Source: Klebsiella phage vB_Kp_Z1. From it: a stretch of DNA of 46,827 nucleotides. Positions 1,864 to 39,227 of the stretch are shown here, in pieces. How positions within the stretch are numbered: the stretch's first letter is position 1; the number at the start of each line of letters is the position of its first letter. The DNA lies in the sequence record PQ308734.1. One strand, written 5' to 3'. The notes under the pieces were generated by a model, which saw only the letters and a program-made list of their open reading frames with translations, was not told the DNA's origin and made no database searches. Made by a program: the position numbers and the translations under genes.

Positions 1864-2043
1864 CAAACTAGCAGCCATTAGCTAATAGTGGCTGCAATGA
1901 TTGTTACTAACTAACGGAGTTTAATATGAAGTCACTACTGGTAAAGCTTACAAGGTATTAAAAGGTTGGTTGTTTTGGGCCGGAGTGATAGTAGTCATCA
2001 CTATCTTGCATACAGGTCTCTTACTATTAGTGAGGGTGGGCTA

Positions 2044-8883: not shown

Positions 8884-9659
8884 TAACTTATAGCGCCGTT
8901 AGTCAGGAATGGCTAACGTAAACTGTGTGAATTCGGGGGAAGACTAGACCAGTTAATCCCGAGCCAGAAGACACCTACTAATGGAGGTGTTTATGTTGAA
9001 GAAGCTGATTAAAGGTTATGAGAATTATTGTGTTCGTGAAGATGGTGAAGTATTCAATGTTCGAACAGGAAGGCGGTTAATGCCTGATGTAAGTAACAGA
9101 GGGTACTGGAGGATTACAGTTTGCAAAGATAATAAGCCTAAGAAATTCACTATTCATAGGTTAGTTGCTGAACTGTTTATCCCAAATCCTAACGGATATG
9201 ACACTGTTAATCATATTAATGGTGATAAGTCTGATAACTCAATTGATAACCTTGAATGGATGAGTCAAGAGCAGAACCAAGAGCATGCAAAGCTTACTGG
9301 TCTGTGCCCTAAAGGTGAGCTAAACGGTATGAGTAAGTACAGTGAGCAGTTGATACACAGAGTATGTGAGCTGATCCAATCAGGTAAGGTTCGCAATGAG
9401 GTGTTAGCTGCAACAGGTATTACTAAGTCATCATTTGATGACATTCGACGCAGGAAGACTTGGCGGCACGTGAGCCAAGATTACTGCTGGTAATTAACCG
9501 TGTCTTCTGGTGTAACGACTATTCCGTAAGGAAGTACACTCAAGCGAGTGGAAGCGCACAGCACCCAGAACGGGTGATGATATAGTCTGGTCTGCATGGG
9601 GACATGCAGCAGTTCATAAGAGAACGGGGTGCAACTAGCGACTGCACTCGAACACAACG
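8884..9659 (+). other. Group I intron (776 nt) interrupting the primase-helicase gene inside its Walker A motif
   Basis: P1 is formed by exon GGCGU (8879-8883) and the internal guide GCGCC (8893-8897), with a U-G wobble at the splice site. P-like GAATTCGGGGGAAG and Q-like AATCCCGAGCC precede the ORF. R-like GTGTAACGACTA and S-like GATGATATAGTCT lie 3' of the ORF, followed by a CTGCATG-GGGA-CATGCAG hairpin (GNRA loop). Terminal G 9659 can act as omega-G. The predicted splice restores GAGTGVGKTEITTQHITSL, a good match to the T7 gp4 helicase motif H1. Confidence 0.7.
8993..9493 (+). CDS. Intron-encoded HNH homing endonuclease (NUMOD4-like N-terminus, HNH core, C-terminal HTH)
   Basis: GYENYCVREDGEVFNV matches the NUMOD4 pattern. 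HRLVAELF...VNHINGDKSDNSIDNLEWMSQEQN is an HNH motif. The ATG at 8993 follows GGAGG. The track ORF is 8981-9493. Confidence 0.8.
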   Translation: MLKKLIKGYENYCVREDGEVFNVRTGRRLMPDVSNRGYWRITVCKDNKPKKFTIHRLVAELFIPNPNGYDTVNHINGDKSDNSIDNLEWMSQEQNQEHAKLTGLCPKGELNGMSKYSEQLIHRVCELIQSGKVRNEVLAATGITKSSFDDIRRRKTWRHVSQDYCW

Positions 9660-36235: not shown

Positions 36236-36542
36236 TAAGAATTCAGCCACAGAGGATGATGTTGGTCTTATCCATAAGCTTGTTACTAAGGTCATTACTA
36301 AGAAGCTTGAGAAGTGGTTAGAGCTTATTGATAAAGGTGGTGATGTAGACTTGGTTGTAGATATGAAACAGCTTAAGTCTGCCATTGACTGGTGTGACAA
36401 GAATGGCATCGTATGTGCTGACCCAGCTGAACAAAGCGATAATGAACTTGGTGATAAGCTCTCTGAGATTCGCAAGGCTCAACATGCTCGTGGTGTAGTT
36501 GTTCCATTCAAAGAAGATGATGAGGAGGGCTATGGAACATGA
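36213..36542 (+). CDS. Terminase small subunit (gp18-like, 109 aa, GTG start)
   Basis: AGGAGG before GTG 36213, and an ATGA overlap with the large terminase start. Size and position fit T7 gp18. Confidence 0.5.
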   Translation: MASVSKSNKNSATEDDVGLIHKLVTKVITKKLEKWLELIDKGGDVDLVVDMKQLKSAIDWCDKNGIVCADPAEQSDNELGDKLSEIRKAQHARGVVVPFKEDDEEGYGT

Positions 36543-37078
36543 GGCGTGTTAACAGGAACGACAAGAAGGCACAGTTAGAAATGTGGGAGGAGCTTGAAGC
36601 GATACAGAAAGCTTTCCCCTTCACTGTGCAAGGCTTGTGGCTGTTTGCCTCACTTGTGCTTGAGAAGACTATCGTAGGCTCTCCTCACCTTAATCGCACA
36701 CAGAAAGATATTCTGAGCTTCCTGCTTAACGGTGGGAAGTATATAGGCATACAGGCAAGCCGTGGCATGACCAAGACAGTTATGGCAGCTATCCTCTGCT
36801 GCTTCTGCCTTATTCATATGCCGCACTACCGTATCATTGTATTCTCACAGAACGGCAAGCGAGCTAAGGAGATTGCAGGGTGGGTTGTAAAAATCTTCTA
36901 TGCTATCGACATCCTTGAGGTATTGCAGCCAGATACCTATGCTGGCGACCGTTCATCTATTGAAGCTTTTGACATTCATTGGTGTTTCCGTGGTGCTGAT
37001 AAGTCACCATCAGTTACTTGCTACTCTATTGAGTCGGGTGCTCAGGGTGCTCGTGCTGACCTTATACTCGCAGACGAT
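36539..37078 (+). CDS. Terminase large subunit, exon 1 (ATPase domain through Walker B)
   Basis: GIQASRGMTKT (Walker A-like) and LILADD (Walker B) align with T7 gp19 TSRQIGKST and IYIEDC. The ORF stops 3 codons after the Walker B motif, at 37087. Confidence 0.85.
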
Positions 37079-37928
37079 AAACTTTAACAATGTCGTCTAT
37101 AAACCATTTTAATTCGGTGGAACTCAGCCCTAACATGGGAAGACAATACCGAGCTAGGGCTAACGCCCGAGTGTAACGACTAGCCGAAAGGCGTAGGGCC
37201 AAGTGGCTCGAAACTTATGGGTGCAGTTATATGCACAAGATATAGTCTACTCTGCATAGAGATATGCAGCATCTCTTAAGGAGGTCTAACATGACCAAGC
37301 GTAATAGTGTTAAAGATACATCAGCATTTCGTACCAGAAAGTATGATGTAGGAAGTATCATCAAGACTAAATATGGTGATGTAAAGATACTAGAAATAAT
37401 TAAAGGTTATACAGATAGTGCTGGTAAGAGGTTTCGCACTAGGTGTGTTTGTATCTTCCTAGCCACTGGTTATGTAACTAATTGCCAACTATCTAACCTT
37501 ACTGTCGGTAAGGTGAAGGATATGAGGATGCCAACAGTGTATGGCGTTGGTTACATAGGGTCTGACATCAAGATAACAGCTCGCGGAACTTATGTTCGTA
37601 GGTTATATGACCTATGGGCTAACATGCTTAAGCGTTGTTATTTTAAGTCTGGTACAAGAAATGATGAAATTTACAAGGATGTAAAAGTTGATACAAGATG
37701 GCACAGTTTCACAAACTTTATGAACACTATACAAGACGTAGAGGGGTTTGAGCTGTTTGAAGCAGGGCTTGATGTTGCACTTGATAAAGATATAAAGGTC
37801 AAGGGTAATAAAGTCTACTCAAGAGATACCTGCATGTTTGTATCAACAAGGGATAACACTATTGCAGCACTTAATAAGAGGTGGCATGGAAAGTAACGAA
37901 GCCATGTTAATAAAGGATTGAAAGTTTG
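37079..37928 (+). other. Group I intron (about 850 nt) splitting the large terminase gene, related to the primase-helicase intron
   Basis: P1 is formed by exon GACGAU (37073-37078) and the guide GUCGUC (37092-37097), with a U-G wobble at the splice site. P-like AATTCGGTGGAAC, Q-like AATACCGAGC, R-like GTGTAACGACTAG and S-like AAGATATAGTCTAC follow, then a CTGCATA-GAGA-TATGCAG hairpin. This is the same core as intron 1. The ORF sits 3' of the core. The 3' splice site is predicted after G 37928 (G 37916 is the alternative), which rejoins ADD|QNSRTAQSREWLLEQ with the same D-to-W spacing as T7 gp19. Confidence 0.65.
37291..37896 (+). CDS. Intron-encoded homing-endonuclease-like / DNA-binding protein (201 aa from ATG 37291)
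   Basis: AAGGAGG precedes the ATG. The motif YGVGYIG...RRLYDLWANMLKRCY...VKVDTRWHSFTNFMNTI resembles the W..M..RC / W..F.NF DNA-binding module of phage homing endonucleases. No HNH or GIY-YIG catalytic motif is evident. Confidence 0.55.
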   Translation: MTKRNSVKDTSAFRTRKYDVGSIIKTKYGDVKILEIIKGYTDSAGKRFRTRCVCIFLATGYVTNCQLSNLTVGKVKDMRMPTVYGVGYIGSDIKITARGTYVRRLYDLWANMLKRCYFKSGTRNDEIYKDVKVDTRWHSFTNFMNTIQDVEGFELFEAGLDVALDKDIKVKGNKVYSRDTCMFVSTRDNTIAALNKRWHGK

Positions 37929-39227
37929 CAAAACTCCCGTACAGCTCAGAGTCGTGAGTGGTTGCTTGAGCAGTCATTAGAGTTTGAGTCAATCAACCAG
38001 TACGGTCGTATCATCTACCTAGGCACACCTCAGGGTGTTGAGTCTATCTATAACACACTCCCAGCTCGTGGTTACGTTATGCGTATCTGGCCTGGCCGCT
38101 ATCCAACAGCTGAGCAGCTTGAGTTTTATGGAAAGGCTCTGGCTCCCTTATTCCGTAAGGATATTGAAGCTGACCCAAGCTTGCAAAGTGGCGGTGGGCT
38201 TGATGGTACTATGGGCAAGCCAACAACACCTGCTATGTATGATGAGGAATTGTTGCAAGAGAAGGAGATGAGGCAAGGTCTTGCTAAGTTCATGTTGCAG
38301 TTCATGGTTCATACTGGTATGTCTGACCGTGACCGCTTCAAGCTTAAGCTAGAGAATCTGGTACTCATGAACTTCAATGCCATGCAAGGTGCTGTTATGC
38401 CTGTGTGGAACAGCGACCAGCGTAGCATGTGGCAAGCTGCCCCTCGCTTTGGTACACGTCCACAAGACAGATTTTACTTTGCCATGCAGCAGCCATACAT
38501 CATGCGTGACTTCGACCTAACTGTTATGTTCATTGACCCAGCTGGAGGTGGCTCTCGCTCACAGGATGAGATGGGTTATGCTATAACTAAGCTGTTAGGT
38601 ACTTATGTCTACATATATGATGTTGATGGTGTCAAGGGTGGTTATGAGCAATCAGAGCTGATGAAGCTTGTGCAAGCTGCTAAGGATGCTAAGGTCAACG
38701 TTTGCTATGTGGAAAAGAACTATGGTAACGGTGCTCACTTTGCAATGCTCAAGCCACTGTTTGAGAAGTTCTATCCGGAGTGTAGGCTAGAGGAGATTAA
38801 CTCCTCAGGTCAAAAGGAACTACGTATCATTGATACACTGGAACCACTGCTAGGCCAGCATCGCTTGGTAGTCTCACAGACAGCTGTTATGAAGGATTAC
38901 AACAGCATTCAGAAGTACCCAGCAGAGGTCAAGATGACTTACAGCTGCTTCTACCAACTTGCTCACATAACGAGCGACCGTGGGGCGCTTAGGCATGATG
39001 ACCGCTTAGACGCGCTGGCTGGGGCTGTGGCGCAGATTGTCAACTACATCGACTATGACCAAGAGAAAGCCGAGAAAGAGCGGCAGGCAGAGGCTGACAA
39101 GCATTTCTTTGAGGTTATGGCTAACCCCAATGGATTCGTTCACACGATGATGCATGGTGGTGATTTTATGAGCTATGTTGAGCAACAAAACACCGGAGCC
39201 AACGCCCTCAAGAAATACTTTAATTAA
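37929..39227 (+). CDS. Terminase large subunit, exon 2 (nuclease / C-terminal domain)
   Basis: REWLLEQSLEFESINQYGRIIYLGTPQG aligns with T7 gp19 DSWLAIQPVISSGRRSKIIITTTPNG. The track ORF 37926-39227 starts at a TTG that is unlikely to be real. Confidence 0.85.
   Translation, partial: QNSRTAQSREWLLEQSLEFESINQYGRIIYLGTPQGVESIYNTLPARGYVMRIWPGRYPTAEQLEFYGKALAPLFRKDIEADPSLQSGGGLDGTMGKPTTPAMYDEELLQEKEMRQGLAKFMLQFMVHTGMSDRDRFKLKLENLVLMNFNAMQGAVMPVWNSDQRSMWQAAPRFGTRPQDRFYFAMQQPYIMRDFDLTVMFIDPAGGGSRSQDEMGYAITKLLGTYVYIYDVDGVKGGYEQSELMKLVQAAKDAKVNVCYVEKNYGNGAHFAMLKPLFEKFYPECRLEEINSSGQKELRIIDTLEPLLGQHRLVVSQTAVMKDYNSIQKYPAEVKMTYSCFYQLAHITSDRGALRHDDRLDALAGAVAQIVNYIDYDQEKAEKERQAEADKHFFEVMANPNGFVHTMMHGGDFMSYVEQQNTGANALKKYFN

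Follow-up and report, generated by a model that had tools for sequence, protein, structure and literature searches.

Evidence for a group I intron of subgroup IA2 within the large terminase gene of Klebsiella phage vB_Kp_Z1

The DNA under investigation, which comprises 46,827 nucleotides of Klebsiella phage vB_Kp_Z1 (sequence record PQ308734.1) and is referred to in its entirety as the window, derives from a Gajwadongvirus-like member of the Autographiviridae with a single-subunit RNA polymerase and a T7-type gene order. It is most closely related to Klebsiella phage RCIP0053 (98% identity). The focus here is on terL, the gene encoding the large subunit of the terminase (TerL). As judged from its sequence, terL is very probably one gene split by an 838-nucleotide (nt) self-splicing group I intron of subgroup IA2 that extends from 37079 to 37916 on the plus strand, the strand of all features of the terL locus described below. 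The precise insertion, the architecture of the RNA, the covariation, and the patchy distribution are established directly by the analysis presented here. A preliminary description of this DNA had proposed that a group I intron with an endonuclease-like open reading frame (ORF) splits terL just after a Walker-B-like LILADD motif. That central claim is supported by intron-less alleles, a covariance model, the predicted fold, covariation, and the occurrence of the same site in distant phages.

The first portion of terL lies in an ORF from 36539 to 37087 that terminates with ...LILADDKL-stop. The rest of TerL, including the Pfam Terminase-T7 RNaseH-like domain (1e-34), is contained in an ORF from 37926 to 39227. 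Exon 2 resumes ∼0.84 kb downstream in another frame, with (37917-36539) mod 3 = 1. The ORF list and the frame arithmetic agree with the previous statements that the ATPase part ends three codons past LILADD and that the remainder follows in a different frame. When the locus was compared by megablast with 50,697 phage records, five covered the whole query, namely RCIP0053, RCIP0089, and three Edwardsiella phages. A two-piece match with the middle missing was observed for seven records representing five phages (Roth32, ECBP5, PP99, MR4, and JSF38). In the intron-less relatives, terL is a single annotated coding sequence (CDS) of 1851 nt encoding 616 amino acid residues. Excision of 37079-37916 restores, codon for codon, a contiguous 1851-nt terL that is colinear with these genes.

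Exon 1 is delineated from 36539 to 37078 (180 codons). It encodes the ATPase's N-terminal portion, ends with ...ADLILADD, is colinear with the terL genes of Roth32 and ECBP5, and aligns to the structure 8dgc_E. Exon 2, from 37917 to 39227, contains 436 codons plus the stop and begins with IESLQNSRTAQSREW, as defined by the intron-less alleles, tblastn, the alignment to 8dgc and 4bij, and the Pfam match. With a caret marking the point of insertion or ligation, the intron-less alleles read ...GCT GAT GAT^ATT GAG TCA CTT CAA AAC TCC... (ADD^IESLQNSR), the longer reading for Roth32 and ECBP5 being ...CTTGCTGATGAT^ATTGAGTCACTT.... The window reads ...GCA GAC GAT(37078)^AAACTTT...AATAAAGG(37916)^ATT GAA AGT TTG CAA AAC TCC.... 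Positions 37917-37928, ATTGAAAGTTTG, encode IESL with synonymous codons. Given that the intron-less alleles and the window both encode IESL directly after ADD, the intron ends at G 37916. This last nucleotide is the predicted omega-G, and all of the homologous terL introns likewise end in G. The ligated exons are predicted to read ...GACGAU^AUUGAAAGU..., which would yield ...LILADD^IESLQNSRTAQSREW (LILADD^IESLQNSR) in a TerL of 616 residues. In longer reads, the expected junction would be ...GCAGACGAU^AUUGAAAGUUUG... or, further extended, ...CUCGCAGACGAU^AUUGAAAGUUUGCAAAAC.... The 616-residue protein aligns without a gap over the junction to the solved T7-type terminases 8dgc_E (E = 5e-84) and 4bij, with "radliladdieslqns" of the query lying against "radiiiaddvevpgns".

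The core of the intron RNA is complete. P1 (37072..37098) is formed by exon nucleotides AGACGAU (37072-78) and the guide GUCGUCU (37092-98), which places the U37078.G37092 wobble pair characteristic of group I introns at the 5' splice site. Both the sequence and the minimum free energy (MFE) fold bear out the earlier assignment of GACGAU and GUCGUC to this helix. P2 is absent. P10 consists of four base pairs (bp) between CAAU of the P1 loop (37088-91) and AUUG of exon 2 (37917-20), and together with omega-G 37916 it conforms to what is expected at a group I 3' splice site. The 5' strand of P3, CCAUUUU (37104..37110), pairs with 37211-37220 (AAA-CUU-AUGG), and the corresponding alignment columns are 96.5% paired with compensatory changes in 5 of 6 pairs. 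P4 (37114..37152) is formed by UCGGU (37114-18) and ACCGA (37148-52), and encloses P5 (37124-30 with 37137-43); both are found in the Rfam alignment, the MFE fold, and the covariation analysis. The P6 hairpin, CUAGGGC-UAAC-GCCCGAG (37154..37171), is defined by covariation and the MFE fold, as is the P8 hairpin (37221..37236). P7, the guanosine-binding helix, pairs GACUA (37178..37182) with UAGUC (37243-47) and corresponds to the most conserved Rfam columns; J8/7 is AAGAUA (37237-42). The P9 hairpin (37252..37269; Rfam alignment, covariation, and fold) is capped by a GAGA tetraloop and is identical to the hairpin CTGCATA-GAGA-TATGCAG pointed out previously. Likewise, the P-, Q-, R-, and S-like elements listed in the preliminary description prove, upon alignment to the Rfam model Intron_gpI, to be the two strands of P4 (P and Q) and of P7 (R and S). 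A 3' peripheral hairpin similar to P9.1/P9.2 (37885..37906), with CAUGG, a loop containing UAACGA, and CCAUG, is conserved in relatives and overlaps the last codons and the stop of the intron ORF.

Between P7 and the 3' strand of P3 lies the stretch 37183..37209, GCCGAAAGGC-GUA-GGGCCAAGUGGCUC, which forms P7.1 (GCC-GAAA-GGC), a GUA linker, and P7.2 (GGGCC-AAGU-GGCUC) according to both the fold and covariation. This P7.1-GUA-P7.2 arrangement is the signature of subgroup IA2 (PMC3428280), to which the insertion is assigned by its sequence. A search with the Rfam group I model, of the kind that had been suggested as a check, matched RF00028 (Intron_gpI) to 37053-37269 over the full model with E = 8.7e-8 when the region was searched alone, and no other Rfam family matched this local region at E values up to 10. 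The fold of 37069-37272 alone has an MFE of -64.9 kcal/mol compared to -47.5 ± 4.1 kcal/mol for shuffled sequences (z = -4.28), with none of 200 shuffles as stable, and it recovers P1, P4, P5, P6, P7, P7.1, P7.2, P8, and P9.

A scan of IMG/VR with the pattern GTAACGACTA-N45-70-GATATAGTCT returned at least 120 loci, and 50 non-identical, ORF-free cores from viral contigs were aligned with MAFFT. RNAalifold, provided with no prior structure, predicted P3, P4, P5, P6, P7.1, P8, and P9 from these cores, with double changes that retain the pair in one or more sequences for 29 of 36 pairs. After addition of P7 and P7.2 to this structure, standard pairs were counted in 92.1% of the cells versus 70.5 ± 0.6% in column shuffles, none of 500 being as high. 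When the 3' partners were slid by 1-3 columns, only 35-43% of the cells paired. Compensatory (double) changes occur in 34 of 46 pairs, the covariation score is 0.51 versus 0.16, and helices 7-9 of the alignment, which cover P7.1/P7.2, show covariation. The conserved core from P3 to P9, including the P3/P7 pseudoknot, is thus that of a group I intron as defined by covariation, with P7 itself invariant by construction.

The same intron is found at the same codon in other phages. The spliced TerL and the intron ORF were compared by tblastn with fetched loci, designated here by L-numbers. Among the matches listed, those to TerL break at residues 180/181 in L019, L026, L028, L074, L094, L101, L115, L122, and L127, contigs in which TerL identity to the window is only 28-38%. 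L070 (and L118) end at a contig edge and show an exon-1 match only, ending at residue 180. In L082, the downstream TerL match starts at residue 168 with no separate exon-1 match reported. An ORF 39-51% identical to that of the window is positioned at the terL break in at least 11 contigs, including L082. The 5' exon GACGAU and the guide GUCGUC are present in all ADD-site terL introns for which ends were read, and every 3' end read is a G. P10 covaries: the window has CAAU/AUUG, L019 has CCAU/GUGG, and L074 has UUAU/GUAG. L019, L074, and Yersinia phage fPS-50 have the 3' hairpin, with its UAACGA-type loop, in the corresponding position overlapping the ORF stop, and L127 displays the hairpin with a different loop. 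In the Edwardsiella phage (L004 ∼1982..2003), the hairpin is CACGG/CCGUG versus CAUGG/CCAUG in the window, a compensatory change. Note that the 5'-strand change falls in a conserved codon of the ORF C-terminus (RWHGK).

Cultured phages provide further copies. RCIP0053 and RCIP0089 are 100% identical to the window intron over the 222 nt compared (37079-37300, the core plus the start of the ORF). The Edwardsiella phages vB_EtA_WAG25P1, DT115P1, and WCT72P1 have the same insertion codon (ADD^), guide, core, and ORF family, and match that 222-nt stretch at 96-97% identity. In the T7-like Helsettvirus fPS-50 (L129, LT961843, 2262..3040), an intron with an ORF of the same family interrupts terL at the same codon and reads ...ATT GCA GAC GAT^AAACTCTAATGTCGTC...ACAAACG^GTT GAG ATT CCA.... 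A separate gene annotated as a homing endonuclease (g044) lies just upstream of terL in this phage. None of these introns differs in kind from that of the window.

Several observations weigh against the group I assignment or the splicing of terL and must be set beside this evidence. With 37.8 bits, the RF00028 match does not reach the curated gathering score of 50. Indeed, when the entire window was scanned against Rfam by default, with gathering thresholds, nothing matched, the group I matches appearing only in E-value mode on the local region. P3 in the window copy is weak, with 4 bp, a 3-nt bulge, and 3 bp. P7, fixed by the collection pattern, yields no covariation evidence. Finally, an AAGGA sequence lies 8 nt upstream of TTG 37926, such that separate translation of exon 2 is formally possible.

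The weak P3 and the low Rfam score could signify a decayed remnant that has lost self-splicing and depends on factors of the host or the phage, or one that renders terL non-functional in the window genome; some phage introns are in fact known to splice only in vivo (PMC11878797). Such decay is improbable, however, in that every core helix is intact, the ORF is intact and conserved, and the near-identical copies cited above belong to cultured Klebsiella and Edwardsiella phages, which must package DNA.

Somewhat less probable still is a fractured gene, in which a free-standing endonuclease gene has entered terL and two polypeptides of 182 residues and of 433 residues (from TTG 37926) are produced with no splicing. 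It would accord with GenBank, where the RCIP0053 and Edwardsiella phage records treat terL as two CDSs. In the RCIP0053 record, exon 1 is a "hypothetical protein" and the "terminase large subunit" is started at the TTG (L003 1388, equivalent to 37926 of the window), a choice by which TerL as deposited falls short by 183 residues. The Edwardsiella records list two "terminase large subunit" CDSs, and that of fPS-50 places a "hypothetical protein" between two "Phage DNA packaging" CDSs. For all of these phages, including RCIP0089, terL has been deposited as two or three unrelated CDSs. A fracture, however, would not account for the complete, covarying group I core that flanks the ORF, nor for an insertion whose two ends coincide precisely with a U.G pair and a G and which has a P10. 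Furthermore, the break would fall within the ATPase core, right after the Walker-B strand, and the sequence preceding exon 2 in the homologous introns is not a conserved ribosome-binding site.

The preliminary description favored a real intron with its 3' end at G 37928, giving ADD^QNSR (...GACGAU^CAAAACUCC...), and offered G 37916 as the alternative. Position 37928 likewise holds a G, and splicing there would keep the reading frame downstream. Its use as the splice site is nonetheless quite unlikely, for it would delete the four residues IESL that are found in all intron-less alleles and whose counterparts are retained in T7-type terminases (ADDVEVPGNS). In addition, 37917-28 still encodes IESL by synonymous codons, P10 (AUUG/CAAU) fits 37917 rather than 37929, and the homologous introns resume exon 2 right after DD, with VEVP.. 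in the contigs, VEIP.. in fPS-50, and IESL.. in the Edwardsiella phage. The junction of the intron-less alleles identifies G 37916 as the correct choice. Other intervening elements, for which nothing speaks beyond the interrupted gene itself, can be dismissed as exceedingly improbable, an intein by the frame change and the in-frame stops from the third codon of the insertion, and a group II intron by the fact that only RF00028 was matched at E values up to 10 and that the ORF is not a reverse transcriptase.

The ORF within the group I intron, 37291..37896, encodes 201 residues, is preceded by a Shine-Dalgarno sequence, AAGGAGG, at 37278-84, and lies after P9 and before the 3' peripheral hairpin. 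It was annotated as a putative homing endonuclease (PHROG 2081) on the basis of the PHROG match, its homologues, an AF2 model, and the same intron elsewhere. The matches are to PHROG 2081 (7e-44), 953, and 374 (to 3e-15), all of which are labeled HNH endonuclease, and PHROG 2081 proteins are carried by introns in the DNA polymerase genes of the Bastillevirinae (PMC11878797). A search of 5.8 billion proteins revealed 242 relatives of ∼185-200 residues, many on contigs of 40-45 kb, none of which contains a Pfam domain. The ORF itself has no canonical HNH motif, and searches with it detected no Pfam (HNH included), NCBIfam, or Protein Data Bank sequence match. The invariant residues of the family are YDLWxNM..R.Y, VD.RW, LDKD, Y176, F183, N189, and RW, with no conserved histidine in the LDKD...N region. 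The AlphaFold model (predicted local distance difference test score of 87) is characterized by an N-terminal SH3/Tudor-like barrel, a helical middle region, and a C-terminal beta-beta-alpha unit; a Foldseek search with it returned nothing significant. The protein is thus a putative endonuclease, named as such by its family labels and its intron context, without a recognized active site.

By analogy with the established group I mechanism, the anatomy of the window intron suggests the following sequence of events. The late transcript would fold such that exon 1 is paired at its end with the guide GUCGUCU to form P1, with the U.G pair at the splice site. Free guanosine bound in P7 would attack after U37078, P10 (CAAU/AUUG) and omega-G 37916 would position exon 2, and ligation of the exons would yield the 616-residue TerL. 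On unspliced RNA, ribosomes would be expected to stop three codons into the intron (GAU^AAA CUU UAA), and this early in-frame stop would keep them out of the core. The intron ORF could then be translated from its own Shine-Dalgarno sequence downstream of P9, and its product would most likely cut or nick intron-less terL in relatives that infect the same cell. Repair that uses the intron-carrying copy would then spread the intron along with a few flanking exon bases, a process known as homing. Catalysis by the intron, cleavage by the ORF product, and homing are all inferred in this scheme. A long-range pairing between UAACAUG (37286-92) and CAUGUUA (37903-09), which if true could sequester the start codon of the ORF and draw the 3' splice site toward the core, was also considered. 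It was set aside as speculation in that it competes with the 3' hairpin and its counterparts in L019-type introns are not complementary.

The distribution of the intron is patchy. The window contains both the terL intron and a second intron in the primase/helicase gene (intron 1, described below). RCIP0053 contains only the terL intron, Roth32 lacks the terL intron and carries intron 1 solely as an ORF-less copy, and ECBP5, PP99, and MR4 have neither. Presence of the terL intron is therefore independent of that of intron 1 in this set of genomes, whose terL genes are 93-99% identical. Relative to the Edwardsiella phage, identity is 96.7% for the core, 89.6% for the ORF, and 83-86% for the exons, the intron being better conserved than the exons. 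The spliced terL of the window differs from that of Roth32 at 30 nt, and 10 of these lie within 12 nt of the junction, against a chance expectation of ∼0.4. Each of the ten is synonymous, and they include a switch of Ser from TCA to AGT. The changes in the 5' flank (GCUGAUGAU to GCAGACGAU) make P1 stronger and correspond to the exon flank of distant intron-bearing phages; the spliced site of the window itself is GCAGACGAT^ATTGAAAGTTTG. Such recoding would look like a co-conversion tract or, alternatively, a target site recoded for protection. The presence/absence polymorphism and the apparently co-converted flanks are those expected of a homing intron, and on the basis of the patchy distribution and the flank recoding, homing by cleavage of intron-less alleles is suggested.

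Additional insertions were observed in the collected loci. For L103 and L119, TerL is matched without interruption to about residue 542, beyond the HDD of the nuclease domain, with the 5' exon GACGAU and the guide GUCGUC. L039, L042, and L044 were placed at this HDD site from the 5' exon sequence only (...CA[TC]GACGAT^). The HDD-site introns carry ORFs of the same family that are 34-39% identical to that of the window, although none was detected for L042. The hexamer and the guide are shared with the ADD-site introns, and thus one guide would serve two Asp-Asp sites in terL. In L028, L074, L082, and L122, gaps of 0.7-0.8 kb mark a second TerL break near residue 395 or 450, and L082 contains two IA2 cores; the terL genes of these four contigs appear to hold two introns.

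Similar sequences are also located away from terL or in unannotated DNA. A 44-nt segment of the window, 37171..37214, which encompasses P7, P7.1, and P7.2, recurs in gaps without annotation in the genomes of unrelated podophages, as an exact match in phiEa1H and phiEa100 of Erwinia (at ∼13.1 kb) and at 95.5% in Ralstonia phage DU_RP_I (at ∼13.2 kb). These stretches are probably further unannotated IA2 introns. A match to 37171-37280 at 79% identity is present in some 40 records of Pectobacterium phages, PP90, Clickz, and Nobby among them, with no feature annotated there. Over 110 nt, the P7-P8 region is 76-79% identical to stretches of the T7-like Yersinia phages Berlin, Yepe2, and Yep-phi and of Pectobacterium phages that are unannotated or associated with the DNA polymerase.

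A tentative and, at present, rather doubtful extension of these findings is that there exists a widespread, unannotated, P2-less IA2 lineage at the Asp-Asp codons (GACGAU/GUCGUC) of the ADD and HDD motifs in Autographiviridae terL. Its endonuclease family, with LDKD...N and an SH3-like barrel but without the HNH catalytic histidine, would possibly represent a distinct class of homing endonuclease. If so, a guide shared by both sites would suggest that the intron spread between them by guide-directed reverse splicing and not through endonuclease homing alone.

The gene in question, terL, is a standard marker for phage phylogeny and for the prediction of packaging mechanism. The databases presently hold truncated TerL sequences, and correct annotation of the intron would provide the 616-residue protein. 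In addition, genomes that are more than 93% identical and contain both introns, the terL intron only, the ORF-less helicase intron only, or neither form a clean natural series in which homing, co-conversion, and the competition that introns mediate between co-infecting phages could be investigated (compare PMC11620839). Phages contain many members of the ORF family, none of them characterized. In the literature searched, which was incomplete and lacked most subscription journals, no terL intron was found to have been described for Gajwadongvirus-like or T7-like phages, nor was this terL lineage for the Autographiviridae. The word intron is absent from the paper describing fPS-50, the Edwardsiella phage paper likewise mentions none, and the public records inspected for related phages carry no intron annotation for this terL lineage.

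Intron 1 of the window extends from 8884 to 9659, contains an ORF at 8981..9493, and splits the primase/helicase gene in the Walker A motif (GVGKT). Splicing as GGCGU^...CACAACG^AGGUAAG would restore GAGTGVGKT in a product of 672 residues. It matches RF00028 with 31.7 bits (E = 6e-6). Intron 1 and the terL intron share the IA2 architecture, conserved P4, P7, J8/7, and P9 motifs, and a location within an NTPase motif. They differ in that intron 1 has a P2, an ORF with Pfam HNH_3 (1.7e-10) in the P6 loop, and an independent distribution among relatives. The earlier observation that the ORF precedes the R and S elements in intron 1 and follows the core in terL is therefore accurate. The two ORFs are unrelated (hhalign probability of 1%). 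The terL intron had also been described as a near-copy of the intron 1 core. This was overstated, in that the core comparison called for in the preliminary description gave 54% identity over P3-P9, and intron 1 ranks 24th of the 49 family members listed by similarity, the nearest being terL-site introns. By sequence, intron 1 and the terL intron reside together as ordinary members of a single large IA2 family and are not recent duplicates. In Vibrio phage JSF38 (L008, 1220..1905), which lacks both window introns, the primase/helicase gene is split at a different position by an insertion with a 159-residue ORF.

The co-residence of two such introns in essential genes had been regarded as striking, an assessment that was too generous given that group I introns bearing homing endonuclease genes (HEGs) are well documented in essential phage genes, including terL (PMC8541194, PMC11878797, PMC3428280). 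Indeed, HEG-bearing IA2 introns in T7-like phages and group I introns in terL are both already established, and the locus described here adds another example. The intron of the T7-like cyanophage Pf-WMP3 is of subgroup IA2 and has been shown to self-splice (PMC3428280); it shares with the terL intron the absence of P2, the 4-bp P10, the U.G pair, and the omega-G. The introns of PhiI and W31 are, as cited in that report, HEG-bearing IA2 introns in T7-like phages. The IA2 introns described for T7-like phages also have in common with the terL intron the P7.1-GUA-P7.2 arrangement and an Autographiviridae host genome (PMC3428280). They differ in that they interrupt the DNA polymerase gene and carry the ORF in P6, whereas here the gene is terL, the ORF follows P9, and its product belongs to another protein family with no canonical HNH motif. 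With respect to the gene interrupted, the closest parallels are Shewanella phage KASIA, in which splicing of a group I intron in terL was observed by reverse transcription PCR (PMC8541194), and the Bastillevirinae SIOphi and phiAGATE, in which splicing of such introns was shown in vitro and in vivo (PMC11878797). In each case an HEG-bearing group I intron interrupts terL and splicing restores the frame, as is predicted for the window. Multi-intron terL genes occur both in systems of the KASIA and Bastillevirinae type and in the relatives found here, but KASIA, SIOphi, and phiAGATE belong to phage families and TerL lineages unrelated to that of vB_Kp_Z1.

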